A stretch of 64,000 nucleotides of DNA. It comes from Acidobacteriota bacterium. GTDB lineage: Bacteria; Acidobacteriota; UBA890; WLXD01. Below the pieces are notes generated by a model, which saw only the letters and a list, made by a program, of their open reading frames with translations, searched no databases and was not told the DNA's origin. This document shows positions 42,508 to 64,000 of the stretch, piece after piece (position 1 is the stretch's first letter; every line of letters starts with the position of its first letter). The stretch spans positions 1,760,001 through 1,824,000 of the forward strand of contig CAXWPH010000015.1 of NCBI GenBank assembly GCA_963666055.2, read 5' to 3'. Made by a program: the position numbers and the translations under genes.

Positions 42508-42650
42508 GCGGAGAGCGCCTGCCGAAACGACGCCCGGCAACTATCGCGGCGCCGACCTACGTCAACTGACTTCGATTCTCCACACCGCCGGCCAGCCTCT
42601 TATGATCAAGTCGAGCCGCGGAACGGGGGGAGGCATTGGCCGGTAACCGA

Positions 42651-44960: not shown

Positions 44961-44970
44961 CGGCGTTCGC

Positions 44971-46896: not shown

Positions 46897-46998
46897 AGGT
46901 GCCTCCGGAGGCGAGGTGATTCGGGCAGACACAGATCGGCTGGCGGATCTGTATCACGTTCGCCGCCGCGTGTAGAGGGGCAGCGAGGTTGCCGCCGG

Positions 46999-48945: not shown

Positions 48946-49109
48946 GGGTGCCTCCGGAGTCGAGTGGGTCGAGCGCACGATTGGATGGTGGATCTGTACC
49001 ACGTTCTGCGTCGAGGTTGGAGGGGTGCTTGCGTACTACCCGCCCTCGCCGAGGCGTGCCGGGCCTCACGATCGGAAGAGACCGATCACGGGGTACATCC
49101 AAACGCGCT

Positions 49110-49931
49110 TCAGTCGAAGTCTGCGAATCGCGCGTCGCGCCAGGCGATCGCTGCCTTGAGGCCGTCTTTGCGGGCGATGGCCATGAACTCCTCGCGTTCC
49201 GGCACCACCGCGGCCTCGATGAGCACGCCCATGTCGTGGGAGTCGCCGAGCGCCTCGCGCATACCCATGATGTCGTAGGTACGGTTGATCGCCTTCTTGG
49301 TGGTGGTCATCGAGAAGGGATCGATGACCGCTATCTTGCGCGCCATCTGCAGCGCCGCCTCGAGGTGCTCGCCCTCGGGGACCACCTTGTTGATGAGCCC
49401 CATCTCCAGGCAACGCTGCGCCGACACGCGATCGTCGCCGGTCATGTACAGCTCCTTGGCCTGCTTGGGCCCGGTGAGCCAGGGCAGCAGCATCACCACC
49501 ACGCCGGCCCCGAAGCGCAGGTCGGGCTCGCCGAGCTTGAAGGTCTCGTCGGCAACGGTGAGGTCACAGGCAAGCGCGAGCTCGCAGCCGCCGGCGATGG
49601 CGTAGCCGTGCACCGCCGAGATCGTCGGCTTGGGGAAGTTCCAGAAGCGCATGATGGAGTCAAAGTCACGCTGCAGCGGCGGCGCTAAGTCGACAACGTT
49701 GGCGCTCCCCGAAGAATCGGCCTCGTCCTTCAAGTCGAAGCCGGAGCAGAAAGAGCGCCCGGCGCCATGCAGGACGACCACCCGCACGTCGGCGTCCTTC
49801 TCGATCTGGTCGAGCACCGCGTCGAGGTCGTCGAGCAGCTGCGCGTTCATGGCATTGAGCACCTGCGGCCGGTTCAACGTGATGATGCCGATGGCGCCGC
49901 GGCGCTCGTACTCGATGGTCTCGAAGGCCAT
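49110..49931 (-). CDS. Enoyl-CoA hydratase/isomerase family
   Basis: ITLNRP, FCSGFDL, KPTISAVHGYAIAGGCELALACD and GLINKVV. Confidence 0.92.
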   Translation of the reverse strand: MAFETIEYERRGAIGIITLNRPQVLNAMNAQLLDDLDAVLDQIEKDADVRVVVLHGAGRSFCSGFDLKDEADSSGSANVVDLAPPLQRDFDSIMRFWNFPKPTISAVHGYAIAGGCELALACDLTVADETFKLGEPDLRFGAGVVVMLLPWLTGPKQAKELYMTGDDRVSAQRCLEMGLINKVVPEGEHLEAALQMARKIAVIDPFSMTTTKKAINRTYDIMGMREALGDSHDMGVLIEAAVVPEREEFMAIARKDGLKAAIAWRDARFADFD

Positions 49932-50008: not shown

Positions 50009-51527
50009 CTATCCGTGACGGATCCAGGCCGATTTCGTGTCCGTATAGTTCAGCAGGCTCTCAAAGCACTTGTCCTTGGCGTTGCCGGACTGCTTCATGC
50101 CGCCGAACGGCTGCGTCATGTCGCCCTCGTCGAAGCAGTTGACCCAGATGACCCCGGCCTCGATGTCGCGGATGAGCCGATGCGCGGTGTTCAGGTCGCG
50201 CGTCCAGATGCCAGCTGCCAGCCCGTAGACGGTGTCGTTGGCCACCGCCAACGCCTCCTCGACGCCGTCGACCGGGATCACCCCGGTCACCGGCCCGAAG
50301 ATCTCCTCGCGGGCGATCTTCATGTCGTTGTTGACGCCGGTGAACAGGGTCGGGTTGACGAACGCACCGGCAGCCAAGTCGCCGTCCGGCACATCGCCGC
50401 CGAACTCCACCTTGGCGCCCTCGTCCTTGCCGGCCTCGATGTAGCCGAGCACGCGCTGCTGCGCTTCCGCCGTCACCAGCGGGCCCATGTTGGTATCGGG
50501 ATCGAGTGGGTCGCCGGGCTTGTAGGCGTCGCGGCCGGCGGCAACGAACTGCTCGACGAACTCATCGTGGATGGAACGGTCCACCAGCAGCCGCGAGCCG
50601 GCGTTACACACTTCACCCATGTTGGCGAAAACGCCGTTGAACGCTGCCGACACCGCTTGCTCCATGTCAGGCAGGTCACCCATGAAGATCTGTGGGTGTC
50701 TTGCCGCCGCATTCCAGGGAGACGCGCTTCATGTTCGACTGCCCGGCGTACGTCAGGATCAGCTTGCCGACCTCGGTCGACCCGGTGAAGGTGATCTTGG
50801 CGACGTCGCCATGTAGCGCCAGCGCCTTGCCGGCAACTTCGCCCATACCGTTGACGACGTTGAACACCCCCGGCGGGCCACCAGCCTCGACGAACAGCTC
50901 GGCGAGCCGGATGCAGCTCAGCGGTGACTGCTCGGCCGGCTTGAGCACCACCGAGTTGCCGGCCGCCAGTGCCGGCGCCACCTTCCAGGTAGCCATCAAC
51001 AGCGGGTAGTTCCACGGCGAGATCGCGCCCACCACGCCAAGCGGCTGGCGCAACGTGTAGTGCAGCACATCGAACTCGGTGGCAGTCACCGTGCTCTCGA
51101 TCTTGTCGATGCACTCGCCGAAGTACTGGAACGTCTCGACGCAGGCCGGCAGGTCGACGGAGATCACATCGGCGATGGGCTTGCCCATGTCGAGCGTCTC
51201 GAGCACCGCGAGCTCCTCGGAGTGCTCGTCGATAAGCGCGGCGAGGTTGTAGAGCACCTGCATGCGCTGGCGCGGTGCCATGCGCGCCCAGGAGCCGGAG
51301 CGGTAGGCGCGCAGCGCCGAGGCTACGGCAGCATCGATATCCTCTTCGGTACCCGCGGCGACCTCGGCGAACACCTCGCCGGTGGTCGGGTTGATGCTCT
51401 CGAAGCGGCCTCCGCGGATGGCGTCGACGTGCTCGCCGTCGATGAACAGCCGCACCTCGGGGGTCACAGCGTCGGCAACAGTGCGCCACTGGGCGCGATC
51501 GTACGTCTCGAGTGTGCTCAGGGACAC
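50009..51527 (-). pseudogene. PuuC/PauC-like aldehyde dehydrogenase split by a 1-nt frameshift (or a sequencing error)
   Basis: ETLDMGKPI, PWNYP, FTGSTEVG and LECGGK in one frame. GEVCNAGSR, EEIFGP and PFGGMKQSG in another. An extra base at GGG 50694-50696 separates them. Confidence 0.82.
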
Positions 51528-51559
51528 GACACCTCTCCTTCGTTGCTGGCAGTTCGCCG

Positions 51560-52771
51560 CTAGAAAGTCCGTATGGATGGGGGTGGGGTACGCGATTCCG
51601 GCAGCGCCAGCTCGTCGGCCCAACGCGGATCGAAAACGCCGCGACGGTACGTATGGGCGACCATCGCCAGGTGATGATAGAGCGCTTGCTCGTCGTCCGA
51701 CAGCGGGCCGGCGCGGTAGGCGCCGGTGTCCATGCCGCGCTGCGCGCCCTCACACACCGCCCAGTCCTGCTGGTTGGTCAGGTGCCAGAAATCGCACGCG
51801 TAGGCAGGATCGAAACCCTCCCGCGCCACAACCTCGGGAGCGAACAGCCAGCGGCACTCGACGCGTGTGCGGTCAGTGGCCAACGGCTCGAAGGTGTGGG
51901 TCAGGACGTAGTCGGGGTGAGCGCTGATAAGCAAGTTCGGGAACAACTCGAGATAGAGGACCTGTCGCAGCTGCGCACCGCTGAGACCCGGCAGCGGCTC
52001 GGCGCCGCTCGCCCCGGTCAACGAAAGCGTCTCGGCACTGGGCACAATGTCCATCGAGCCGCCAACCCAGGCGCCGTCCGGCTGCCACAGGTAGCCGCTG
52101 TCGGCCGGGCTGACCCGGCACAGCTCTGGATGAATCAGCGGGCAGTGGTAGCACTCATGGTAGTTCTCGATGATCAGCTTCCAGTTGGCGTTCACCACGT
52201 ATTCGTGGCGCGCGCCCTCGACGAGCTCGTCGGCGCCGTACGCCGCCATAGTCGTGCTGAGGCGCTCGCCCGTGTAGGTGACAAGGTCCACCGCCGATCC
52301 CGAGATGTTCACGAACAGCCAGCCACCCCACTCACCGACCGACACCGGCACCAGGCTGAAATCGGCGGGGTCGAAGCTCGCATCCTCGCAATGCCGGGCG
52401 CTGGCGACCGTCCCGTCGAGGTCGTAGCTCCAGCCGTGATAGGGACACCTCACCCGGCCGCCGGTGCGCGCCTCGCCGCAGGCGATGAGCTCGTGGCCAC
52501 GGTGGCTGCAGACGTTGAAGAAGCCCCGGATCGACCCGCCCTCGGCGCGCGTCAGCAGCAATTGCCTGTCGGCGACCGAAAGGCCGAGCTGCGAACCGAC
52601 CTGGTGCAGGTCCTGGACGCGGCCGACGCACACCCAGGTGTCGGCGTAGATGTGCTCCAGCTCCCACGCATAGACCTCGGGCGAGGTATACGCCTCACCG
52701 GGAAGCATGCGGCTGTCCCCGAATGGCTCGAGTACCGCCTGCAGCGCCGACGCCGGAATCGGTGCGGACAT
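51560..52771 (-). CDS. Rieske non-heme iron oxygenase alpha subunit (GbcA/Stc2/choline monooxygenase-like)
   Basis: CSHRG..CPYHGW Rieske site, NWKLIIENYHECYHC..IHP iron site and QDWAVCE. Confidence 0.9.
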   Translation of the reverse strand: MSAPIPASALQAVLEPFGDSRMLPGEAYTSPEVYAWELEHIYADTWVCVGRVQDLHQVGSQLGLSVADRQLLLTRAEGGSIRGFFNVCSHRGHELIACGEARTGGRVRCPYHGWSYDLDGTVASARHCEDASFDPADFSLVPVSVGEWGGWLFVNISGSAVDLVTYTGERLSTTMAAYGADELVEGARHEYVVNANWKLIIENYHECYHCPLIHPELCRVSPADSGYLWQPDGAWVGGSMDIVPSAETLSLTGASGAEPLPGLSGAQLRQVLYLELFPNLLISAHPDYVLTHTFEPLATDRTRVECRWLFAPEVVAREGFDPAYACDFWHLTNQQDWAVCEGAQRGMDTGAYRAGPLSDDEQALYHHLAMVAHTYRRGVFDPRWADELALPESRTPPPSIRTF

Positions 52772-52799
52772 CACCTGTGTCTCCTCTCACCAGCTCTTC

Positions 52800-52815
52800 T
52801 TGAACCGCTGTTCAA
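52800..52815. promoter_or_regulatory. Candidate TetR/BetI operator 1
   Basis: Palindrome TTGAAC-CGCT-GTTCAA, abutting a minus-strand TTGACG-N18-TACACT promoter at 52845-52816. Confidence 0.75.
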
Positions 52816-52908
52816 AGTGTAGCGACCCCTTTCTCGGGCCGTCAAGATCGACCCGCCGCACAAGTGCGCCGGCTATGTAGACTTGGTCGATCGGCTACCG
52901 CTATCATG

Positions 52909-52924
52909 GTGAACCGCTGTTCAA
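52909..52924. promoter_or_regulatory. Candidate TetR/BetI operator 2
   Basis: GTGAACCGCTGTTCAA; the 17-mer TGAACCGCTGTTCAAAG is identical to site 1. Just 3' of TAGACT-N18-TATCAT at 52878-52907. Confidence 0.75.
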
Positions 52925-52948
52925 AGAATACTCACGGAGTAGGCTGTG

Positions 52949-54328
52949 ATGTCCGAGACCACAGAAGCAATTGCCCGTAGCAAAGCACCCCTCGTCGAGC
53001 TCACCGAGAAGCAGGAGCGCATCTTCGTTGAGCGTCAGCCGAGGTCGGGGGAGCTGTCGGCGCGGGCGCTTCGATCGCTGGCCGGCGGAACCACTTCGAG
53101 TTGGCAGATGGCGCGACCACAAACCGTGTGGGTCAGCCACGGAAGCGGCTCGAAAGTCTACGACGTCGATGGCAACGAGTACGTCGACCTTCACGGCGGC
53201 TACGGCGTCGGCCTCGTCGGCCACGGGCACCCGGCGCTGGTGCGCGCCTTGAGCGAGCGGGCTCCGCTCGGCACGCACTTTGCTCAGCCGACCGAGGACG
53301 CGATTCTCGTCGCCGAGGAGCTGGCACGACGATTCGATCAACCGCTTTGGCGCTTTACCAACTCGGGGACCGAATCGACGCTCGACGCATTCCACCTGAT
53401 GCGCTGCGCCACGGGTCGGGACATCGTTCTCAAGGTGGAGGGCTGCTACCACGGCCACCATGATTCGGCGATGGTCTCGGTGGCCAACGAGGCCGACGAG
53501 ATCGGGCCGGTGGAGCGACCGCACAGCCCCCAAGCCGGCAGCGGCTTGCCTGCCGCGACTACCGATCTGACCTGGATCGTTCACTACAACGATCTGGAGA
53601 TCGTGGAGCGCCTGCTGGTAGAGAACCCCGGTCGAGTCGCCGGGATGATCCTCGAGCCGATCATGATGAACGCCGGTATCATTGGCCCACAGGATGGCTA
53701 CCTGGCGGGTTTGAAGGACCTACTCCATCGTCACGGTGCGCTGCTGACCTTCGACGAGGTCAAGACAGGCCTCACCGTCGGCCCCGGGGGAGCCACCCGG
53801 CGGCTCGGCGTAACCCCGGATCTGGTCACCCTTGCCAAGGCGATCGGTGGGGGGGTGCCGTGTGGCGCGGTCGGTGGCAGCGAAGCGGTCATGGGTCTGA
53901 TCGTCGAGCGGGAGTACGAGCAGATCGGCACGTTCAACGGCAACCCATTGACCATGGCGGCGTGCCGAGCGGTGCTCACCGAGATCCTCGACGACGACGC
54001 CCACGCGCATGTCGAGTCGCTCCGAGAGCACATGCAACGCGGCGTCGAGGCGATCATCGAGGAGTACGGGATGGACGCCCACGTGATGGCTTTCGGAGCC
54101 AAGGGCTGTGTGACGTTCTCGTCGACGCGACTCGACAACTACCGCGGCTTCCTCGAGATCGACGGCGATCTCAGCCACCTTCACTGCTTAGTGCAGCACA
54201 ACGGCGGTGTGTTCCTGCCGCCGTGGGGCAAGGCCGAGCAGTGGACACTGTCGATACAGCACACGCCGGGAGACGCGCAGCGGTTCGTCGATAATTTCAG
54301 GACGTTCGCGCAGGCGCTCTCGGGGTGA
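52949..54328 (+). CDS. Class III PLP aminotransferase (GSA-mutase-like subfamily)
   Basis: DVDGNEYVD, FTNSGTE, EGCYHG, FDEVKTG, LAKAIGGG and GTFNGNP. Confidence 0.9.
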   Translation: MSETTEAIARSKAPLVELTEKQERIFVERQPRSGELSARALRSLAGGTTSSWQMARPQTVWVSHGSGSKVYDVDGNEYVDLHGGYGVGLVGHGHPALVRALSERAPLGTHFAQPTEDAILVAEELARRFDQPLWRFTNSGTESTLDAFHLMRCATGRDIVLKVEGCYHGHHDSAMVSVANEADEIGPVERPHSPQAGSGLPAATTDLTWIVHYNDLEIVERLLVENPGRVAGMILEPIMMNAGIIGPQDGYLAGLKDLLHRHGALLTFDEVKTGLTVGPGGATRRLGVTPDLVTLAKAIGGGVPCGAVGGSEAVMGLIVEREYEQIGTFNGNPLTMAACRAVLTEILDDDAHAHVESLREHMQRGVEAIIEEYGMDAHVMAFGAKGCVTFSSTRLDNYRGFLEIDGDLSHLHCLVQHNGGVFLPPWGKAEQWTLSIQHTPGDAQRFVDNFRTFAQALSG

Positions 54329-54418
54329 GGCTCGGGGGCTGCGGAGGTCATCGCCGGGAGGCGGCGCGCCACGCCGAGAGGGTGCTTACCAACGTGACGC
54401 GCCCCCCGGCGTAGCCCG

Positions 54419-55510
54419 GTGCAGACCGATGAGCACGGCGGCCACCTGCAGCTCAGCGGGCTAGCCAAGGAGTACGGCGACTTCACCGCTGTGCGCGATG
54501 TCGACCTCGAGGTCGCGCCGGGGGAGTTCTTCTCGCTTCTCGGACCGTCGGGGTGCGGTAAGACCACCATGCTGCGTATGGTGGCGGGCTTCGAACGGCC
54601 GACGCGCGGCAAGATCTACCTGGACGGCGAAGACCTGTCGGAGACCCCCCCACACAGGCGCACCGTCAACACGGTTTTCCAGAGCTATGCGCTCTTCCCG
54701 CACCTCACGGTGGGCGACAACGTCGCTTTCGGGTTGCGCTTTCGGGATATCTCGAGGGCGGAGGAGGGCGCCAAGGTCCGAGCGACCCTCGAGTTGGTGC
54801 AGATGGAGGGCATGGCCGACCGCAAGCCGGCACGCCTGTCCGGCGGACAGCAACAACGAGTTGCTCTCGCCCGCGCCTTGGTGCTGGACCCTGCGATACT
54901 GCTGCTCGACGAGCCGCTCGGCGCCCTCGACGCTCAGCTCAAGAAGTTGTTGCAGGTCGAGCTGAAGCGAATCCAGGAGCGCGTCGGGATCACCTTCGTC
55001 TACGTGACCCACGACCAGGAGGAGGCGATGGCTTTGTCCGACCGGATGTGCGTCATGCACGAGGGCACGATCCGGCAGGTGGGTCCGCCGCGACAGGTGT
55101 ACGAAGAGCCGGCCAGCACCTTCGTCGCCGACTTTCTGGGCGTATCCAACGTCATCGCCGCCAAGGCTCTCGGACGCCATGCGAACGGCGGTTGCCGGGT
55201 GGCGATCGGCGACCGCGAGCTGGTTGCCGAGGCCGGCGACATCGACGCTACCGGAGAGGTGAAGGTCATGCTACGGCCAGAGCACCTGCGTGTCGGAGAG
55301 CCTGAGGAGTCGGGGTTGAATCGGCTACACGGGATCATCGAGCGTCTCGTCTATTTGGGGCCGACGACGCAGATGTTCATTCAGCTCGACGGCGGCCAGA
55401 CGGTGCAAGCGTTGATCTCGAACCGTGGCGACGCCATCGAGTACCCGCGGGGCAGCCGCGTCTCGGTAGGCCTACCGTCGTCGGCGCTGCGCGTTCTGAC
55501 CACCGGCTGA
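54419..55510 (+). CDS. potA: Polyamine ABC transporter ATPase (PotA-like)
   Basis: GPSGCGKT, NTVFQSYALFPH, LSGGQQQR, LLLDEP, FVYVTHDQEEA and a TOBE C-terminus. Confidence 0.88.
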   Translation: MQTDEHGGHLQLSGLAKEYGDFTAVRDVDLEVAPGEFFSLLGPSGCGKTTMLRMVAGFERPTRGKIYLDGEDLSETPPHRRTVNTVFQSYALFPHLTVGDNVAFGLRFRDISRAEEGAKVRATLELVQMEGMADRKPARLSGGQQQRVALARALVLDPAILLLDEPLGALDAQLKKLLQVELKRIQERVGITFVYVTHDQEEAMALSDRMCVMHEGTIRQVGPPRQVYEEPASTFVADFLGVSNVIAAKALGRHANGGCRVAIGDRELVAEAGDIDATGEVKVMLRPEHLRVGEPEESGLNRLHGIIERLVYLGPTTQMFIQLDGGQTVQALISNRGDAIEYPRGSRVSVGLPSSALRVLTTG

Positions 55511-55561
55511 CGGTCTCCTGTCGGAGCGTCGGCGCCCCCCGGGCCGGTTCGCGCCGGCAGG

Positions 55562-56443
55562 CTAACTGAGTCGCGCGAACTCCTCGACCGCCGACCCGCC
55601 GGCGCCCGAGCGCGCCCGAGCGCGGCGCATGATCAGCGCCGCTGCCAGCACCGCGAGCAGCGTCAAGAACAGCAGGATGCTGGCCAGCGCGTTGAGCGCC
55701 GGCGTCGGCGCCAATCGCGCCGCGCTGTAGAGACGCACCGGGATGGTAGCCGACTCCGCCCCACCCGAGAGAAAAGCGCTGATCACAAAATCGTCGATCG
55801 ACACCGCGAAGGCGATCATCAGGCTGGCGAAGATCGCCGCCGCCATGAGCGGCAACAGAACCATGCGCACTGCTTGCGCCGGGGTCGCGCCGAGGTCCAT
55901 CGCCGCCTCTTCATAGTCGCGGCCGATCGCGAAGAGGCGGCCGCGTACCACGATGACGACGTACGAGATGGTGAACGTGACGTGGCCGATGAGCTGCGCC
56001 CACGTGCCGAGCTCGATGAACGGGAACAAGTAGATGAATACCATGAGCAGCGACACGCCCATGACCAGCTCAGGGGTCGCCATCGGCAGCAGCAACAGGA
56101 AGTTGGCGGGCTTCGAGCCGCGACCTCTCCACCGTGCCAGGCCGAGCGCCAGCGCCACTCCGAGGGGCGTGGCAACCAGCATCGTCAGCCCGGCGAGCTT
56201 GAGGCTTTGCTTCAACGCTGCTATCAGCGACCCATCGTTCCAGACAGACAGGTTCGGATCGGTGAAGTACCAGCGCAGCGAAAACCCCTGCCAGACGCTG
56301 CGCGACCGGCCCTCATTGAAACCGAATTGCACCGCAATGAGCACTGGCAGCAGTGACCATGCAATGTAACCCCAGACAAACAGCTGTAACAATCGCGGTT
56401 GGCCCCACGGGTCACGCCACCGGCGAATGAACCGGTTGATCAT
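55562..56443 (-). CDS. potC: Polyamine ABC transporter permease (PotC-like)
   Basis: GFSLRWY, EEAAMDLGA and SIDDFVIS. Confidence 0.85.
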   Translation of the reverse strand: MINRFIRRWRDPWGQPRLLQLFVWGYIAWSLLPVLIAVQFGFNEGRSRSVWQGFSLRWYFTDPNLSVWNDGSLIAALKQSLKLAGLTMLVATPLGVALALGLARWRGRGSKPANFLLLLPMATPELVMGVSLLMVFIYLFPFIELGTWAQLIGHVTFTISYVVIVVRGRLFAIGRDYEEAAMDLGATPAQAVRMVLLPLMAAAIFASLMIAFAVSIDDFVISAFLSGGAESATIPVRLYSAARLAPTPALNALASILLFLTLLAVLAAALIMRRARARSGAGGSAVEEFARLS

Positions 56444-57351
56444 TGTTGGCTCTCTCGCGCCGCACCCATGACGGTAAACAGATAATAGGCCATCAACATC
56501 GCAATAAGCGCCATCAAGACCACCGTCAGTGCGGCTCCGGTCGCACCGCCGACGCCACTGTTGATGAACAGATCGATCTCATTGCCGATCATTCGCGTGC
56601 GCGGCGACCCTGAAAGAAGATTCGGCGTGTAGTAATCGCCGAACAGCGGCAGCATGATGATCACCACGCCGGCCAGAACTCCCTGTTTGGACAGCGGCAA
56701 CGTTACGTGCAGGAAGGTACGCACTGGACCCGCGCCTAGATCGCGTGCCGCTTCAAGCACGCTGCTGTCGATCTGATCGAGAGCGGCGTACAGCGGCAGT
56801 ATCAGGAACGGTACATAGCCGTATACGAGCCCCAGAATCACCGTCTCGTGGTGGCCCACCAGCCAGGCGCGCGGGGCATCGAGCACGTTGACGAACACCA
56901 GGAACCGGTGCACGTAGCCGTCGACTGCCAACAGGTTCTGCCAGGCCATCATCCGCATCAGGTAGTTGATCCAGAAGGGAGCGACGATCAGACCGAGTAG
57001 CAATCCTCGCCAGCGACCGGCGTGGCGAGCGAGGTAGTAGGCGACCGGATAGCCGATCAGCAGACAGAGCATGGACGCGGTGCCGACGTAGACGAAGGTG
57101 CGAATGAAGATCGCCGTCAGGCGGCCGCCGAACAGCTCGCCCAGTACCTCGGGGAAGATCGCCGGGTTCCAGCGGATCGGATTCCACACCGGCTCGGCGC
57201 TACTGAAGACCGGGTCGAGGCGTCCCATCGCCACCGATAGCAACGCGTAGAACGGGGTAACGAAGAAGAGCAGCAACCATGCGATCCCGGGAGCGGCGAG
57301 CGCTCGCCACAACCACGTTCGATTGCGCGAGAGGTCAGCGCCGCTAGCCAC
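56440..57351 (-). CDS. potB: Polyamine ABC transporter permease (PotB-like)
   Basis: GYPVAY, PFWINYLMR, LPLYAAL, EAARDLGA and MIGNEI. Confidence 0.85.
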   Translation of the reverse strand: MASGADLSRNRTWLWRALAAPGIAWLLLFFVTPFYALLSVAMGRLDPVFSSAEPVWNPIRWNPAIFPEVLGELFGGRLTAIFIRTFVYVGTASMLCLLIGYPVAYYLARHAGRWRGLLLGLIVAPFWINYLMRMMAWQNLLAVDGYVHRFLVFVNVLDAPRAWLVGHHETVILGLVYGYVPFLILPLYAALDQIDSSVLEAARDLGAGPVRTFLHVTLPLSKQGVLAGVVIIMLPLFGDYYTPNLLSGSPRTRMIGNEIDLFINSGVGGATGAALTVVLMALIAMLMAYYLFTVMGAARESQQ

Positions 57352-58645
57352 CTGACTGAACCGACGCCCAGACCTTCATCCATTCGATCTCGACTTCGGG
57401 TGGCAACTGAAGCGGCAGCTGGCCAATCGAAAAATCGTCTTCGGTGGTGATCGTACTAGCGAGGTTCGGCGGTATGTGCCCCTCGGAGACGAACGTCTCC
57501 GGATTGACCGTCCTGAGCGGCGGTGGGTTACCGATCCAGCCGAAATTGCTCAGGGCGTTCGCGGTCTCGAGCATGAAGTTGATGAAGTGATGCGCCAACA
57601 CGGGATGCTCGGCGTTGCGAGGGATCGCGAAGGTTTCCACCGCGACCATACCGCCGGCGCTCGACTGCTCGGACCGTGGAGGCCAGAAGTAGCGCATCAC
57701 GGACGGGTCCTCATCACGCGGAAAGTAGGCTCGCGACTGAACGACGTCGCCCGACCAGGCATGATGCAGGGCGAACCCACGCTCCGGGATCTTGGCGTAG
57801 ACACCATCGATTGTGAAGCGCACGTTGATCAGATCGATGAGCTCGAGCAGCTTACGGCGAGCCTTCTCGAGCCGCGCCGGATCCGCGGTGTTGATGTCGT
57901 TGGTTCCGGTGGCGTACAGGCCGACCCCGATGGTCTCCTTGAAGTCGTCGTACATGCCAGCGATCCCGTGGTATTGAGGATCCCAGAAGACGTGCCACGG
58001 ATTGGTCATCGCCTCGAGGTCGGGGGACACCATGTCTTCCCGCCATGCGATACCCGTTTGGTACACCGTGTACGGAGCCGTGTACCGCGCCCCCTGATCG
58101 TAGAAGGGGCTTACGAGGCTCGGCCACACGTTGGCGAGGTTGGGCAGGTAGGCGTGGTTGAGCGGCTGCAATAGCTGACCAGCAATGCACTTGGGTATCT
58201 GCTCGAGGGGCGGGAAATAAACGTCGAAGCGGCCCGCCTTGGTGCGCAGCTTCCGGATTGCCTCCTCGTTGTTGTAAAAGGTCGTGTACTCCCAGTCGAC
58301 GCCGTAGCGCTCCGAGAACGCGTTCAAGACCGGGATGTGGACGTACTCGGCCCAGTTGAAGATCTGCAGCGGTCCTGACTCGATATCCAGGCCGCTATCG
58401 ATCGGCGGGTTGTCATCGAATAGCGGATGCTGAACGGGGTTTTCCGGCGTCCCGACCAGGACGCGCCGCCGGTCGTCCGTGGCAAAGCTGGCACCGGCTC
58501 CGCAGCCGGCGAGGCTGGCGCTGAGCCCAGCGCCACCGACGATGCGCAGCAGCTCACGGCGGTTGAGAGCGCCGCGGCGCCAGGCAGGGTCGCGAGGGTG
58601 GAAGACCATCGAGGGAGCCTCGCCGACGGCGCCCATCGAACGCAA
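57344..58645 (-). CDS. potD: Polyamine-binding protein (PotD/PotF-like) with a Tat/lipoprotein signal
   Basis: LNRRELL, LAGC, IFNWAEY, AWSGD and AHHFINFM. Start uncertain. Confidence 0.82.
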   Translation of the reverse strand: MRSMGAVGEAPSMVFHPRDPAWRRGALNRRELLRIVGGAGLSASLAGCGAGASFATDDRRRVLVGTPENPVQHPLFDDNPPIDSGLDIESGPLQIFNWAEYVHIPVLNAFSERYGVDWEYTTFYNNEEAIRKLRTKAGRFDVYFPPLEQIPKCIAGQLLQPLNHAYLPNLANVWPSLVSPFYDQGARYTAPYTVYQTGIAWREDMVSPDLEAMTNPWHVFWDPQYHGIAGMYDDFKETIGVGLYATGTNDINTADPARLEKARRKLLELIDLINVRFTIDGVYAKIPERGFALHHAWSGDVVQSRAYFPRDEDPSVMRYFWPPRSEQSSAGGMVAVETFAIPRNAEHPVLAHHFINFMLETANALSNFGWIGNPPPLRTVNPETFVSEGHIPPNLASTITTEDDFSIGQLPLQLPPEVEIEWMKVWASVQSGG

Positions 58646-58705
58646 GTGCGCAGGGCGATTATCGTACGCTCCAACGACCCGCCGCTCCTCGAGGTCGCAA
58701 CGGTT

Positions 58706-59341
58706 TCAAACCTTCGCGGTCACCAAGGCCGGCACCCCGAAACCAAGGGACTCCGACGCCATGCAGACACAGATCCGGCGGGCGCGCTCGTAGTCGGCCT
58801 CGGGATCCCCCAGCACATGTTGCACGGCGATGCCATCGAGGAGGCAGGCTAGGTGCATGGCGAAATCCTCGACGTCGACAGCATCGAACTCGCCAGCCGA
58901 CTGGCCCTCACGGACGATATCGGCAATCGTGGCGCGCCAGCGACGATCGCCCGCGGCTCGCTTCTTTGCGGCAGCGTCGTCGCGGAGTGCCCGCGACCAC
59001 AGCTCGATCCAGAGGGCGAAGTCGTCGCGCAGCACTGGTGCCATGGCTTCGTGACCGCAGCTGAGCTCGATGAGCCGCACGAGCTTCTCGCTGGCGCTCT
59101 TCAACGTGGTCAGCTCGGCAAAGATCGCCAGATAGAAGCGGTCCTCGGCATAGGCCAGCGCCTCGGTGAGCAATCGGTCCTTGGACTCGAAGTAGTAGAG
59201 CACCAGCGCGGCACTCGTTCCCGTGCGGTCGGCAACGTCGGCAATTCGCGCCTTGCAAACGCCGCGTTCGACAATTGTCTCCACCGCGGCCTCGAGGATC
59301 TCCTGGCGCCTTTTGCGGCTGATCTTGGGTCGTGGAGCCAT
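58706..59341 (-). CDS. TetR family regulator with a BetI-type C-terminal domain
   Basis: RRQEILEAA..IADVA..LVLYYFESKDRLL HTH, WIELWSRA and LLDGIAVQ. Confidence 0.9.
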   Translation of the reverse strand: MAPRPKISRKRRQEILEAAVETIVERGVCKARIADVADRTGTSAALVLYYFESKDRLLTEALAYAEDRFYLAIFAELTTLKSASEKLVRLIELSCGHEAMAPVLRDDFALWIELWSRALRDDAAAKKRAAGDRRWRATIADIVREGQSAGEFDAVDVEDFAMHLACLLDGIAVQHVLGDPEADYERARRICVCMASESLGFGVPALVTAKV

Positions 59342-59357
59342 ACCTACGCGGGAGTTA

Positions 59358-59373
59358 CTGAACCGGTATTCAA
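59358..59373. promoter_or_regulatory. Candidate operator 3 (autoregulatory)
   Basis: CTGAACCGGTATTCAA, 16 bp upstream of the tetR start. Confidence 0.65.
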
Positions 59374-59456
59374 GATGTTGATGAATTAACGATGCCGTGA
59401 TTCTAGACCATGCGCGCCTTTCCTTCCCGGGTTCTGCGAGATATCGTCTGCGGCGG

Positions 59457-59472
59457 CTGAATGGTCAGTCAG
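59457..59472. promoter_or_regulatory. Candidate operator 4
   Basis: CTGAATGGTCAGTCAG, with the same TGA-N8-TCA spacing, upstream of the CoA-ligase gene. Confidence 0.45.
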
Positions 59473-59551
59473 TTTTTGGGACTCCAACACCCGCCGGCAG
59501 AAACCGAGGCGAGCGCTTCGATCACGCGTCGGCTTCACGGCGGCTCGAGTG

Positions 59552-61681
59552 ATGTCGGACACGGTCACCCTTCAACCGCACCTGGCGCCGATGCTGGCGG
59601 CGCGATCCGTGGCGATCGTGGGGGCGAGCAACCGCCCCGGATCCGCCGGCTACACCATGGTGTCCGAGCTCAAGATCGGCGGCTTCGCGGGCCCCATCTA
59701 CCCGGTCAACCCGGGCTACGAAGAGGTGCAGGGACTGCGCTGCTACGCATCGCTCGACCGCCTGCCGGAAGCGGTCGACCTGGTGATCCTCGGGATCAAG
59801 AACTCGCTGCTCGAGGGCCAGTTGCAACTGGCCGCGGACTGCGGCGCGGGTGCGGCGGTGATTTTCGCCAGCTGCTACGAGGAGCCGCAGGAGAGCGCGC
59901 CCGGGCTTCCCCAGCGACTGTCCGAGATCGCCCGCGCACACGCAATGCCGGTCTGCGGCGGCAACGGGATGGGCTTCTTCAACCTCGAGAACGGGCTCCG
60001 GGCGTTGGCGTATCCGGAGCTCGCCGATCTGGAGGCCGGGCCGATCACCTGGCTTAGCCACTCGGGCTCGGCCTATACCGCCATGACCCACAACCAGCGC
60101 GGGTTGAAGTTCAACCTCGCGGTCTCCACTGGTATGGAGCTGGCAACGACCGTAGCCGACTACATGAAATACGCGCTCGAGCTCGAATCGACCGGCATGA
60201 TCGCGATGTTCCTGGAGACGGTTCGTGATCCGCGAGGATTCCGCCAGGCGCTGCAGCTGGCGGAGGCGAAGGATATCCCGGTGGTGGTGCTGAAAACCGG
60301 CCGCGAGCCGCTCGCGCAGGAGCTGGTGGTGGCACATTCGGGTGGGCTCGCCGGAGAGGATGGAGCCTACGAGGCCGTGTTTCGCGAGTACGGCGTAGTT
60401 CGTGTCGCCAACCTCGACGAAATGGTCGACACGATGGAGCTGCTGAGCGCTGGCCGAGGTGCAGCGCCGGGAGGACTGGCGGCAGTTCACGACTCGGGAG
60501 GCGAACGCGCCCACCTCATCGACGTGGCCGCCGACGTGGACCTGCCGCTGGCACAGATCTCGGACGAGACGGTGGGCCGTCTGGCGGCGGTCCTGGACCC
60601 CGGCCTGCCCGCCGTCAACCCGGTCGACGCCTGGGGCACTGGAGCCGATCACGAAGCGATCTTCCTGGAGTGCATGCGCGCGTTGCTTGCCGACCCTGAT
60701 ACCGCCGCCCTCGGCTTCGTCGTTGACCTCGCAGACTACGTCCGCGACCCGGGTCACGGCTACGATCAGATGGCGGCGAAGATCTTCGCCGGGACCGACA
60801 AACCCGTGGCAGTCTTGAGCAACCTGCCAACGTCGATACCGGAGGAGTCCGCCGAGCTGATACGCAACGCCGGCGTCCCGTTGCTCGAGGGCACGGCTAC
60901 CGGGCTGCGAGCCTTCCGGGCGCTGTTCGACCGCCGCGACTTCGCAGCGCTGCCGACCTTTGCCTCCCCTGCGGCGGTTGAGGCGGAAGTGCGCGAGCGC
61001 TGGCGACGACGACTGCGCGAAAGCACTCGCTGTAGTGAGCAGGAAGGGCTGGCGCTGTTGAGCGACTACGGTCTCCCGACCATCGAGGGAGAAACGGCCG
61101 ACAGCACCGCGGACGCCGTCGCGGCGGCCAAGCGCTGCGGATGGCCAGTAGCGCTCAAGACCGCGGCCCCCGGAGTGGCGCACAAGTCGGACGTAGGCGG
61201 GGTCATCCTGGGGCTGGACAACTCGGTGGCCTTGGAGCGCGCGTGCAACAGGCTCATCGAGCGGCTTGGCCCTCCGGTGTTGGTGCAGAAGATGGCTCCC
61301 GCCGGCGTGGAGTTGGCGCTCGGCGTTGTCCGCGACGCCCAGTTCGGCCCACTGGTGATGGCGGCCACCGGCGGCGTGCTGGTGGAAATTGTCCGCGACC
61401 GCGCCTTCGCACTGCCGCCACTGGACGCGCCACGTGCCGAGCGGCTGCTGAACGGCCTAGCGGCCCGACGGCTCCTGTCTGGCGTCCGCGGAGCATCGCC
61501 CGCCGATACCCGCGCGGTCGTCGACGCCCTCGTACGACTCTCGGTGCTCGCCGTGGATCTGGGTGATCTCATCGACGGACTCGACATCAACCCGTTGATC
61601 GCCGGCCCTAAAGGCTGTGTAGCAGTGGACGCTCTCGTCGTTCCCCGAGCGCACGAGAGCCTGCCTGAACAGGACCCCTGA
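59552..61681 (+). CDS. ADP-forming acyl-CoA synthetase (acetate-CoA ligase family, fused alpha/beta)
   Basis: SVAIVGAS, IYPVNP, SHSG, AHSGGLAG, NPVD, HKSDVGGV and DINPL. Confidence 0.88.
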   Translation: MSDTVTLQPHLAPMLAARSVAIVGASNRPGSAGYTMVSELKIGGFAGPIYPVNPGYEEVQGLRCYASLDRLPEAVDLVILGIKNSLLEGQLQLAADCGAGAAVIFASCYEEPQESAPGLPQRLSEIARAHAMPVCGGNGMGFFNLENGLRALAYPELADLEAGPITWLSHSGSAYTAMTHNQRGLKFNLAVSTGMELATTVADYMKYALELESTGMIAMFLETVRDPRGFRQALQLAEAKDIPVVVLKTGREPLAQELVVAHSGGLAGEDGAYEAVFREYGVVRVANLDEMVDTMELLSAGRGAAPGGLAAVHDSGGERAHLIDVAADVDLPLAQISDETVGRLAAVLDPGLPAVNPVDAWGTGADHEAIFLECMRALLADPDTAALGFVVDLADYVRDPGHGYDQMAAKIFAGTDKPVAVLSNLPTSIPEESAELIRNAGVPLLEGTATGLRAFRALFDRRDFAALPTFASPAAVEAEVRERWRRRLRESTRCSEQEGLALLSDYGLPTIEGETADSTADAVAAAKRCGWPVALKTAAPGVAHKSDVGGVILGLDNSVALERACNRLIERLGPPVLVQKMAPAGVELALGVVRDAQFGPLVMAATGGVLVEIVRDRAFALPPLDAPRAERLLNGLAARRLLSGVRGASPADTRAVVDALVRLSVLAVDLGDLIDGLDINPLIAGPKGCVAVDALVVPRAHESLPEQDP

Positions 61682-61782: not shown

Positions 61783-62967
61783 ATGCTACCGACACCCTTT
61801 CATTCGAGAACCGCGCCGCTGTGCGTCAGCAACAGCTGGGTCGAGTGGGCGGGCTACCAGTCGGCCGCCATGTACGAGCTCGAGCACACCCACGAGTACC
61901 ACGCCGTGCGCATGGCGACGGCGCTCTTCGACGTCTCGCCGCTGTACAAGTTCCATATTCACGGACCCGACGCCACGCGGTTGCTCGACAGGGTGCTGAC
62001 GCGCGACGTGACCCGATGCGCGGTCGGGCAGGTGATGTACGCGGCCTGGTGCGATGACGCCGGCCACATCATCGACGACGGCGCGCTGGCGCGACTGGAA
62101 GACAACCTCTACCGACTGACGACTGCCGACCCGAGCTTGGCGTGGCTACAAGACAACGGCTACGGCATGGATGTCCAGGTGGAAGACGTGTCCGAGTCGC
62201 TCGCGGCGCTGGCGCTGCAAGGGCCGACGTCACGCGACCTCCTGCAGGCTGCCGCGAGCACGGACCTATCGAAGCTCGGGTACTTCCGCGCCACCCAGAC
62301 CGGCATCGGCAACGCCCGGGTGACCGTGACCCGCACCGGCTACACCGGCGACCTCGGCTACGAGGTCTGGATCGACCCCGACGATGCCGAACACGTGTGG
62401 GACGTGTTGATGGATCGGGGCCGCAGCTATGCGATCAAGCCGGCCGGCACGCTGGCGCTCGAGATGGTGCGCGTCGAGGCCGGTTTGCTGCTGTCTGAGG
62501 TCGACTTCATCTCCTGCCGCAAGACGATGTTCGACGTCCAGAAGTCGACCCCGCTGGAGCTCGGCCTGGGTTGGATGGTGCACCTCGACAAGCCGTTCTT
62601 CGTCGGCCAGCAGGCGCTCAGGGAGGAGAGGGCCCGGGGGCCGGCGTGGAAGACGGTCGGGGTGGAAATCGACGTCCTCGCACTGGAGGCGATCTACGCC
62701 GAGTTCGGCATGCCGCTGCAGCTTCCCTGGGAGGCGTGGAGCACGGCCGTGCCGGTGTACGTCGGCGGCCGGCAGGTGGGCAAGGCTACCAGCGGCACCT
62801 GGTCGCCGACCCTCAAGAAGTACATCGCGCTCGCCCGCGTCAAGCCCCAGCACACCGCGCTGGGCGGCACGCTCGACATCGAGATGACGGTCGAGGCGAT
62901 ACGTAGCACGGTTCCCGCGAGGGTCGTCAAGACACCGTTCTTCGATCCCGCGAGGAAGAAGTCGTGA
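61783..62967 (+). CDS. GcvT-family THF-dependent aminomethyltransferase/demethylase
   Basis: AGGAG RBS before ATG 61783. TPFH, ALFDVS, IIDDG, LQGP, RTGYTGDLGYE, RVEAG and PFFDP. Confidence 0.88.
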   Translation: MLPTPFHSRTAPLCVSNSWVEWAGYQSAAMYELEHTHEYHAVRMATALFDVSPLYKFHIHGPDATRLLDRVLTRDVTRCAVGQVMYAAWCDDAGHIIDDGALARLEDNLYRLTTADPSLAWLQDNGYGMDVQVEDVSESLAALALQGPTSRDLLQAAASTDLSKLGYFRATQTGIGNARVTVTRTGYTGDLGYEVWIDPDDAEHVWDVLMDRGRSYAIKPAGTLALEMVRVEAGLLLSEVDFISCRKTMFDVQKSTPLELGLGWMVHLDKPFFVGQQALREERARGPAWKTVGVEIDVLALEAIYAEFGMPLQLPWEAWSTAVPVYVGGRQVGKATSGTWSPTLKKYIALARVKPQHTALGGTLDIEMTVEAIRSTVPARVVKTPFFDPARKKS

Positions 62968-64000
62968 GCGCTACCAGTAGCGCCATTGGGATCACCACCA
63001 AGTACGACGCCATCGTCGTCGGGGGCGGCCACAACGGATTGACGACCGCCGCCTACCTCGCCAAGGCGGGGCGCAAGGTGCTGGTGCTCGAGCGCCGGCA
63101 CATCCTGGGCGGTGCGGCGGTCAGCGAGGAGGTCTACCCGGGGTTCACGTACACAGTCTGCTCGTACGTCGTCAGCCTGCTGCGCCCCGAGGTCATTCGC
63201 GAGCTCGAGCTCGCCAAGCACGGGCTCCAGATCGTGCCGTTGACCGGCGCTTTCACACCGATGGAGGACGGCAACTACATCGCCTTCTGGCCCGACGCCG
63301 CCAGCACCCGCGACGAGATCAAGCGCCATTCGGTGCGCGACGCCGACCGCTACGAGGAATTCCACCAGCTCATGTTCGAAATGGCCTACGCGGTCAAGCC
63401 GATCCTCGGCATGGTGCCACCCGACCTGGTGTCGCCGAGCCTGCGCGACCTCGGCACCCTGCGCGAGCTATCACGCCACATGAAGGGGCTCGGCAGGCGC
63501 AAGTTTCACTACCTCCACAAGATCATGACGATGAGCGCCGCCGACTTCCTCGCTGAGTTCTTCGAGACCGATGTGATGAAGTCGGCAATGTCGATCAGCG
63601 GCATCATCGGCACCATGCTCGGCCCCTGCTCGCCGGGCACCGCGTACGTGCTGCTACACCACTACATGGGCGAGCTCGACGGTGCCTTCACCGCCTGGGG
63701 CTCGCAGAAGGGCGGCACCGGCGGTGTCAGCGAGGCGCTGGCCAGCGCCGCCCGCAGCCACGGGGCGGAAACCCGCTGCAACGCCGCGGTCGAGCAGGTA
63801 ATCGTCAAGAACGGACGAGCGGTTGGCGTGGCGCTGGAGAGCGGCGAGGAGATTTTCAGCAAGGTCGTGGTGTCGGGATGCGACCCGAAGGTCACGTTCC
63901 TGAAGCTGCTCGATCACAAGGATCTGCCCGGCGAGCTGGTCGAGTCGATCAAGAAGTTCAAGTTCCGCGGCTCCTCCGGAAAGGTCAATCTGGCGCTCGA
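62964..64000 (+). CDS. COG1233 phytoene-desaturase-like/PYROXD2-like FAD oxidoreductase (runs off the window end)
   Basis: Translated by hand from GTG 62964 (GTGA overlap): YDAIVVGGGHNGLTTAAYLAKAGRKVLVLERRHILGGAAVSEEVYPGF. Absent from the ORF track, consistent with no stop before 64000. Confidence 0.88.
   Translation, partial: MSATSSAIGITTKYDAIVVGGGHNGLTTAAYLAKAGRKVLVLERRHILGGAAVSEEVYPGFTYTVCSYVVSLLRPEVIRELELAKHGLQIVPLTGAFTPMEDGNYIAFWPDAASTRDEIKRHSVRDADRYEEFHQLMFEMAYAVKPILGMVPPDLVSPSLRDLGTLRELSRHMKGLGRRKFHYLHKIMTMSAADFLAEFFETDVMKSAMSISGIIGTMLGPCSPGTAYVLLHHYMGELDGAFTAWGSQKGGTGGVSEALASAARSHGAETRCNAAVEQVIVKNGRAVGVALESGEEIFSKVVVSGCDPKVTFLKLLDHKDLPGELVESIKKFKFRGSSGKVNLAL

Follow-up and report, generated by a model that had tools for sequence, protein, structure and literature searches.

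A conserved TetR-headed regulon predicted to serve methylated-amine catabolism in an Acidobacteriota genus and an Actinomycetota class

A cluster of genes under a TetR-type repressor lies in a 64,000-nucleotide stretch of an Acidobacteriota genome (contig CAXWPH010000015.1, positions 1,760,001 to 1,824,000; the window), and we compared it with the closest described systems for betaines, polyamines and dimethylsulfoniopropionate (DMSP). The betaine demethylation systems (BetI, GbcAB, and proline betaine with Stc2 and HpbB-HpbA) share with the cluster a Rieske enzyme of the same group with the same ligands and a similar logic of stepwise N-demethylation (PMC3950512). The cluster differs from them in its polyamine-type transporter, its aminotransferase and CoA arm, its PYROXD2-like flavoproteins with GcvT and its lack of a linked reductase; moreover, the proline-betaine regulator HpbR is of the LysR type, whereas that of the cluster is a TetR. 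Pot/Spu transport with the Puu/Pau pathway has in common with the cluster a PotABCD-like transporter and an aldehyde dehydrogenase (ALDH) for which PuuC is the best model, but the window holds no PuuA or PuuD, the aminotransferase belongs to another subgroup and the PotD pocket is altered. The predicted likeness to DMSP demethylation (DmdA-B-C-D) lies in a folate-linked demethylation followed by a CoA ligase, an acyl-CoA dehydrogenase (ACAD) and a crotonase freeing the heteroatom group, while the cluster would differ in its nitrogen substrate and ADP-forming ligase, and no DmdD-labelled chain stood among the 60 crotonase matches listed. The cluster thus likely works as betaine demethylation joined to a DmdBCD-like CoA route behind a Pot transporter. 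A literature search, which left most subscription journals uncovered, returned no description of a pathway with this gene set.

The cluster represents a real, conserved regulon, apparently for methylated-amine catabolism, outside BetI, GbcA and Puu memberships. The gene families, the operator, its conservation and the co-variation of operator and TetR come directly from the analysis, and from them we infer every catalytic step. The probability that the substrate of the cluster is an N-methylated di- or polyamine is, in our estimate, roughly 0.55. Methylated-amine catabolism with folate-linked demethylation is probable, and we consider it very probable that the four units of the cluster form one regulon bound, as predicted, by the cluster's own TetR.

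The cluster comprises 14 genes in four units: Rieske-ALDH-crotonase, aminotransferase-potA, tetR-potD-potB-potC and ligase-gcvT-Ox1-Ox2-ACAD. Profile matches confirmed the gene families named in a preliminary description of the window. The last unit, described there as CoA ligase-GcvT-COG1233, contains these genes but extends beyond the window, with a second COG1233 gene, Ox2 (G000:C15:1824574-1826160), and then the ACAD gene (1826218-1827378). The features within the window are listed below, with model scores as score/cut-off.

49110..49931, minus strand: crotonase-family hydratase (PF00378; nearest PDB chain 4k29, 281 bits)
50009..51527, minus strand: aldehyde dehydrogenase (505 aa in congener G002; host copy split by a spurious base at 50694)
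51560..52771, minus strand: Rieske oxygenase alpha subunit of the Stc2/CntA/GbcA group (GbcA 190/670; best PDB matches 3vca, 4qup, 6y8j)
52801..52814, no strand: operator 1, TGAACCGCTGTTCA, directly 3' of a -10 box TACACT (52821-52816, minus strand)
52910..52923, no strand: operator 2, TGAACCGCTGTTCA, directly 3' of a -10 box TATCAT (52902-52907)
52949..54328, plus strand: class III pyridoxal phosphate-dependent aminotransferase, glutamate-1-semialdehyde (GSA) aminomutase-like subgroup (PRK00062 307/398, PRK07046 272/425, putrescine transaminase 125/612; PDB matches)
54419..55510, plus strand: PotA-type ABC ATPase (TIGR01187 379/356, above cut-off)
55562..56443, minus strand: PotC-like permease (profile match)
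56440..57351, minus strand: PotB-like permease (profile match)
57344..58645, minus strand: PotD-like solute-binding protein (true start probably near 58612; acidic pocket; no aromatic at PotD W255)
58706..59341, minus strand: TetR repressor with BetI-type C-terminal domain (PF13977; nearest structures 4nel/4ich/4jnn/4kwa; presence tracks the motif)
59359..59372, no strand: operator 3, TGAACCGGTATTCA, 17 bases before the tetR start, with a conserved TAGAAT upstream at 59405-59400
59458..59471, no strand: operator 4, TGAATGGTCAGTCA, 10 bases after a conserved TATCGT (59442-59447)
59552..61681, plus strand: fused alpha-beta ADP-forming acyl-CoA ligase (profile matches; in 68/78 TetR loci)
61783..62967, plus strand: stand-alone GcvT-family folate-binding protein (NF053776 298 bits, against GcvT 238/300)
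62964..64000, running past the window, plus strand: COG1233/PYROXD2-like flavoprotein Ox1, 536 aa (profile and homology)

The operator is a 14-bp palindrome, TGAAY-N4-RKTCA. All four TGAA-N7-TCA sites previously placed in the two divergent spacers are present, each one base further right than had been quoted, beginning at 52801, 52910, 59359 and 59458. With the loose TGAA-N7-TCA pattern the window yields 10 strand-matches at 7 places, where 3.25 +/- 1.81 would be expected, and 0/100 shuffles reach this number of matches; across the host genome the pattern is unspecific (246 places). The strict form TGAACCG.T.TTCAA occurs three times in the 5.7 Mb host genome, every time inside the cluster. A matrix trained on 67 sites, all from non-congener loci, finds precisely these four matches in the window and 12 genome-wide, and the two spacers carry four matrix matches, whereas 5000 shuffles average 0.001 and never exceed 1. 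In four congeners all four sites form conserved alignment blocks, the one deviation being site 4 of G003 and G004; operator 4 has the form usually seen in the TetR spacer of Actinomycetota. The proposal that a single TetR operator heads the four units is upheld by conservation and by the matrix and shuffle tests alike, with binding by TetR itself predicted. Sites 1 and 2 begin one to two bases past a -10 box, as the preliminary description had noted of sites abutting sigma70-like boxes, but promoter-like matches are not enriched (3 in 15 kb, no excess over 2.0 +/- 1.3 expected); upstream of sites 3 and 4, inspection of the alignment by eye shows conserved -10-like hexamers.

The analysis does not support a regulon spread over the whole host genome: most of the eight other matrix matches lie in coding or unrelated DNA, and in the host genus a loose pattern occurs only about twice as often as its control. 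A fifth high-scoring site (G000:C5:90983; L099), identical over 14 bases in G002 and G003, stands upstream of a short-chain dehydrogenase and may be a remote regulon member or a chance match. Two similar boxes (TGAA..ATCATTCA) also stand in the promoter of another host tetR gene (G000:C15:45749-45790); boxes related to the operator may be read by other TetRs.

The TetR at 58706..59341 is the predicted cognate regulator. Its earlier designation as BetI-like is borne out for the C-terminal domain (PF13977, 68 bits, cut-off 27) but not by the curated BetI models (TIGR03384 88/201, PRK00767 71/118), and no betA, betB or betT is linked to it in the cluster, a BetA-like gene being found in 3/124 loci. 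The best sequence-profile match (E about 1e-42) and fold match (TM about 0.8) is a TetR from Saccharomonospora viridis (4ICH, 4KWA, 4NEL, 4JNN), which is 31-32% identical and contains the same DEW-x-x-W-x-x-x-W segment. This protein has been solved with choline (4KWA), with benzamidine and with a ligand titled 'N,N-dimethylmet...', which we take to be trimethylamine. These ligands are consistent with a methylated amine as the signal, as had been proposed. Across 48 orthologues, residues W111, E113, W115 and D169 do not vary.

This TetR occurs in 5/61 relatives of the host, all in the host genus, while 76 of the next 78 TetR loci, at 45-63% identity, are from Actinomycetota, and the motif lies upstream of TetR in 76/78. 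Within these 78 loci, many of them short stretches, the genes near TetR are COG1233 (73), ligase (68), ACAD (48), Rieske (29) and GcvT domain (27). Linkage is tightest for the COG1233 gene, which encodes the PYROXD2-like flavoprotein and was bracketed in the preliminary description, and for the CoA ligase gene, which heads its unit there. Co-occurrence elsewhere, on which that description had made its proposal depend, is found: the complete gene order is retained in four congeners and two metagenome loci, L025 (Acidimicrobiia) has a nearly full, largely syntenic gene set, and the families recur with TetR in Actinomycetota. In the window and L025 an Ox gene and GcvT stand beside the ligase and TetR, and in most Actinomycetota one different COG1233 gene takes that place.

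Presence of the regulator tracks presence of the sites. TetR was found in 92 of the 121 genomes of one Actinomycetota class (that of G061), and these 92 carry a median of 9 sites per genome for the pattern YTGAMYSNNSRKTCAR, the other 29 a median of 0, with a mean of 0.44 for the reversed-pattern control. At least four sites are present in 85/92 TetR-positive versus 7/29 TetR-negative genomes, kin not being independent, or in 83/90 versus 7/28 without the unpublished G071, G097 and G155; the seven TetR-negative genomes, with 4-7 sites each, may be incomplete. The regulon is dispersed in the Actinomycetota class and compact in the Acidobacteriota genus, which likely gained the cluster by transfer.

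The content of the actinobacterial regulon was read from 40 stretches around sites and paralogues from five genomes, plus five TetR loci, at a site score of 16.5 or more. Thirty-nine of 51 sites lie within 330 bases upstream of labelled families, namely TetR, COG1233, ACAD, aminotransferase, Rieske, GcvT, crotonase, PotD/amine oxidase, ALDH, Fhs/FdhD, isocitrate lyase and a class V aminotransferase operon. COG1233-GcvT operons, isocitrate lyase and tandem aminotransferases about 50% identical to that of the window each stand behind sites in four of the five genomes. Also site-headed are GcvT pairs with methylenetetrahydrofolate reductase (MTHFR) or formiminotransferase, a Rieske orthologue, a second Rieske, crotonase-ligase and Fhs with formate dehydrogenase (FDH) genes, and in 2/5 genomes a class V aminotransferase, an HpcH/HpaI lyase, a Suc/Mtk-like pair and a glyoxylate-reductase-like gene. 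Among the one-carbon (C1) genes, which include DmdA-like GcvT pairs (298-355, under the cut-off of 410), MTHFR, FDH-like genes and formiminotransferase, Fhs and isocitrate lyase pass their cut-offs. This C1 side of the regulon is visible only beyond the window. Flavin amine oxidase and PotD share an operator-bearing spacer in L161, L076 and L090. As a side observation, the operator heads a cysteine-synthase-like PALP gene in seven loci (L039, L048, L059, L067, L071, L081, L087), often near sarcosine oxidase genes; fumC was discarded as a member, the site lying beyond the end of the gene.

An analogous cluster is present on a plasmid of Shinella zoogloeoides (ATCC 19623), with Rieske, aminotransferase, Pot ABC, TetR (25%), Ox-Ox-GcvT and an old yellow enzyme (OYE) flavoprotein, and three copies of the motif; a similar Parasedimentitalea cluster has zero motif matches. 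The Shinella sumterensis plasmid NZ_CP132306.1 (L093) carries, under LysR genes, a Pot-type ABC, crotonase, ADP-forming ligase, 3-hydroxyacyl-CoA dehydrogenase, COG1233, GcvT and BKACE, and appears to be a carnitine-like variant built from the same parts. A link to the Ruegeria pomeroyi megaplasmid (a 35% ligase beside an ABC transporter, probably SPOA0381-0384, the tag mapping being inferred) was dropped, as the binding protein there is MotA-like.

The choline-bound structure nearest to TetR also suits a different reading, in which TetR would be a general trimethylammonium sensor over parallel routes for choline, betaines, carnitine-like compounds, sulfonium compounds and polyamines, and the window cluster would serve a quaternary omega-amino compound such as butyro- or valero-betaine or an amine precursor. 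Such breadth would fit the gene content near TetR, which includes two kinds of Rieske enzyme, as many as four COG1233 paralogues linked to operators, DmdA-like GcvTs, sarcosine oxidase and genes resembling dimethylglycine dehydrogenase. It would also fit a probable betaine-type ATPase (judged by eye) after the ECH-ligase operon in L180, and the set of ligase, ACAD and crotonase resembles the butyrobetaine-to-carnitine route. Against it, both ends of the binding pocket are acidic, with Asp where opine-type relatives have Arg, no carnitine-dehydrogenase-like or BKACE match was found, and BetA-like genes occur in just 3/124 loci. We regard this sensor reading as rather unlikely, and it would overlap with a methylated di- or polyamine if the imported compound were a trimethylated diamine.

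For an N-methylated di- or polyamine, the first step would be entry of the methylammonium head group into the tryptophan-rich pocket of TetR, lifting repression, and the second import of the polycation by PotABCD. The substrate is predicted to be N-methylated, with one free primary amine end and probably also an aminopropyl arm. The genes support the polyamine-type transporter proposed earlier, the acidic PotD/PotF positions being kept in a putative two-ended polyamine pocket. Through an alignment with PotD, whose numbering and residue roles we assume, the PotD-like protein (86/582 for the polyamine-binding PotD/PotF model) keeps W34, E36, Y37, D168, E171, W229 and D257 (as E), with W255, Y85 and Y293 changed. 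At positions 168, 171, 232, 257 and 85, an acidic residue is found in 15, 16, 16, 17 and 14, respectively, of 17 binding proteins of the subfamily, and all 17 lack an aromatic residue at position W255. The acid gained at Y85 and the loss of W255 suggest that a bulkier polycation is likely taken.

In the third step, the Rieske enzyme would take a methyl group off, or cleave at, the quaternary nitrogen, the PYROXD2-like pair would oxidise the leftover N-methyls, and the GcvT protein would load the C1 unit on tetrahydrofolate. The Rieske protein is predicted to act on a quaternary amine, either by N-demethylation or by cleavage of a C-N bond. Its CSH..CPYH and ENYHECYHC..H motifs and C-terminal Asp, which we take to be the Rieske and iron ligands, align with 3vca/6y8j, and the bridging Glu is present. 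GbcA (NF058607) is its best NCBIfam match at a score (190/670) far below the cut-off, which tells against the plain glycine-betaine demethylase that the preliminary description had allowed for. The best model for the GcvT-family protein is the GcvT domain of trimethylamine N-oxide (TMAO) demethylase (NF053776); a folate-binding partner of the Ox genes fits a C1-releasing step. Its closest named relatives are mostly from Anaerolineae, so the cluster may be a mosaic.

The aminotransferase, a predicted omega-transaminase, and the ALDH would in a fourth step convert the primary-amine end, yielding an N-substituted omega-amino acid, of which a beta-alanine is the likeliest. The aminotransferase had been expected to be of the polyamine (SpuC/PatA/PuuE) type but proved GSA-aminomutase-like (putrescine transaminase 125/612, gamma-aminobutyrate (GABA) transaminase 130/639), and its 50% identical orthologues are operator-headed in 4/5 actinobacterial genomes. 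The ALDH is likewise not PuuC proper: the congener protein scores 537/850 for PuuC, its best model, and 504/669 for betaine aldehyde dehydrogenase (BADH), both under cut-off. The split in the host copy is due to one added base at 50694, which is missing from otherwise identical contigs in two of four sequencing runs, from two studies, the contigs of the remaining two runs not spanning this position, and the gene is in frame in four congeners; it is therefore an assembly error. The noted absence of PuuA and PuuD from the window holds, with no glutamine-synthetase-like or PuuD-like match there and no full-length PuuD-like match in the host genome.

In the fifth step the CoA ligase, ACAD and crotonase would act like DmdB, DmdC and DmdD of the DMSP demethylation pathway, with hydration of an enamine-CoA to a shortened amine and malonate semialdehyde. 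The crotonase, whose orthologues are operator-headed in Actinomycetota, is predicted to hydrate 3-amino-acryloyl-CoA and thereby release the amine. A CoA-acylating malonate/methylmalonate-semialdehyde dehydrogenase (721-733 bits, cut-off 448) is present in 15/78 TetR loci and in L061 is co-oriented behind an operator-headed ACAD. No 3-hydroxyacyl-CoA dehydrogenase or BKACE match was found in 124 loci. Taken together, these genes favour release of the amine from a beta-alanyl-CoA over full beta-oxidation.

The same semialdehyde dehydrogenase, together with isocitrate lyase, would also suit an ordinary polyamine (spermidine, spermine or norspermidine) degraded without glutamylation through putreanine-type acids, with COG1233 cleaving secondary amines and the folate genes handling glycine or glyoxylate. 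PotD D168/E171 are kept and amine oxidases and agmatinase-like genes lie nearby, and PYROXD2 is associated with N-acetyl-isoputreanine (PMC8109053). Such a substrate leaves unexplained the quaternary-amine-type Rieske, the GcvT in an operon with COG1233 and the choline-type TetR pocket, and also why the same operator heads DmdA-like pairs with MTHFR as well as Fhs and FDH; we find it distinctly improbable.

Ox1 is 36-37% identical over about 520 aa, nearly its full length, to eukaryotic PYROXD2-like proteins, the human sequence itself lying outside the comparison, and its top Atlas clusters are named PYROXD2-like, Atlas names being otherwise generic; it scores far below the cut-offs of the CrtO and CrtI models. 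The bacterial proteins differ from human PYROXD2 in coming paired and with a GcvT partner gene. A human PYROXD2 variant accounts for 50% of plasma N6-methyllysine variance, and variants also associate with dimethyl- and trimethyllysine, N-methylpipecolate and N-acetyl-isoputreanine (PMC8109053). Enzymology of PYROXD2 was sought in the same literature search, with its gap in subscription journals, and none was found. As these genetics point most strongly to N6-methyllysines, mono- to trimethyl lysine could be the substrate, losing its methyl groups one at a time before further breakdown. In the Shinella zoogloeoides analogue three kinds of demethylase follow one another (Rieske, OYE flavoprotein, Ox-Ox-GcvT), resembling the Rieske and flavin demethylase steps for proline betaine (PMC3950512). 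The aligned binding-protein pocket has no apparent carboxylate-binding residue, the aminotransferase is of the omega/beta type, and lysine needs no CoA ligase, ACAD or crotonase; a methyl-lysine substrate is thus very unlikely, and its decarboxylated products, N-methylcadaverines, would count among the methylated diamines. A plain glycine-betaine/choline (BetI-GbcA) cluster with unrelated neighbours, suggested by the BetI-type C-terminal domain and by GbcA as best NCBIfam match of the Rieske protein, is largely refuted by scores far under cut-off (BetI 88/201, GbcA 190/670, BADH 504/669), by the lack of betA, gbcB or a betaine transporter in the cluster, and by the operator common to all four units, whose synteny is kept in four congeners, two metagenome loci and largely in L025.

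Several observations weigh against an N-methylated di- or polyamine as substrate. No Rieske reductase is linked to the cluster, the two PF00175 matches of the host genome both lying elsewhere. PotD, aminotransferase and crotonase lie within 10 kb of TetR in just 9, 5 and 5 of 78 loci, and the nearby Rieske and GcvT matches are mostly paralogues (29-37%). Twelve of the 51 sites front other genes or none, and the count of 39 depends on family labels chosen after seeing the data, with G065, one of the five genomes, barely sampled. The actinobacterial regulon also holds DmdA-like genes, a second Rieske, sarcosine oxidase and, in three loci, BetA-like genes, which fit a broad methyl-onium regulon. 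A quick COG1233 tree, without the human sequence, does not establish orthology to PYROXD2; its grouping with eukaryotes (SH-aLRT 91) excludes Ox1. PotD-annotated proteins can take other ligands, PA0222 binding GABA (PMC6829864), so that family labels alone are unsafe. The compounds bound in crystals of the Saccharomonospora viridis TetR, a structural-genomics protein of 31-32% identity, may not be its natural ligands. The missing beta-oxidation enzymes rest on a single query per enzyme, with thiolase outside the search, and the host's top malonate-semialdehyde dehydrogenase match is 39% and unlinked to the cluster. Of the serine-cycle-like genes, isocitrate lyase alone passes a specific cut-off; the mtk-like genes score 546/604 for malate-CoA ligase yet exceed the succinate-CoA ligase cut-off, so a serine cycle is read from gene order. 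The host genome gave no match to isocitrate lyase or malyl-CoA lyase.

It is possible, though on balance doubtful, that the regulon reflects a widespread pathway for growth on N-methylated aminopropyl polyamines, with PYROXD2-family and GcvT proteins as folate-coupled N-demethylases, DmdBCD-like aminopropyl removal, one TetR coupling it to serine-cycle methylotrophy in the Actinomycetota class, and a compact module moved into the Acidobacteriota genus. The operator and probable regulator define a regulon in three quarters of sampled genomes of an uncultured Actinomycetota class, tied to C1 metabolism, and point to a glutamylation-independent fate of methylated polyamines. If correct, this would be a first testable role for bacterial relatives of the human orphan enzyme PYROXD2, giving a bench-testable context to a protein whose human variants strongly shift N6-methyllysine levels (PMC8109053). 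The cultured alphaproteobacterial analogue on the Shinella zoogloeoides ATCC 19623 plasmid opens a way to genetics.

Other parts of the host genome carry related genes. Fhs and MTHFR are present, and TMAO demethylase and a type III glutamate-ammonia ligase (GmaS-like) score above cut-off outside the cluster. These two lie in a methylamine island (G000:C1:48000-78000; L183, L184) with Sox/Mgd-like genes, an OYE flavoprotein, another Rieske and, judged by eye, BetB-like, Amt-like and glutamate-synthase-like genes. The genome has 19 Rieske alpha-subunit matches against two NAD_binding_1 (PF00175) reductase-type matches. Two further loci have no matrix match of at least 15: a second GcvT-Ox-Ox triad (G000:C14:324039-328445; L097; identities of 44%, 58% and 39%) and a lone COG1233 gene that forms a pair with a DAO-family gene (G000:C12:277128-279890; L098). 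Elsewhere, P0001 is an apparently clean 1037-aa fusion of both COG1233 types (Ox-Ox) on a single contig, which hints at a heterodimer; the GcvT-COG1233 and ligase-COG1233 'fusions' P0015, P0016, P0018 and P0003 appear to be frameshifted assemblies and were set aside.

In congener G002 a 280-base insert separates ligase and gcvT (L008:6098-6377; 97% match to G000:C15 near 1801242-1801522), and potD is in two pieces (L008:9437-10731), possibly an assembly error. A DAO-family oxidoreductase lies 12 kb beyond the cluster (L001:17263-18699), with relatives near PotD or TetR in L021, L102 and L164. Adjoining the cluster on the left (window 42636-49002) are two tandem CocE/NonD hydrolases and a short phosphoenolpyruvate carboxylase, with no operator match.

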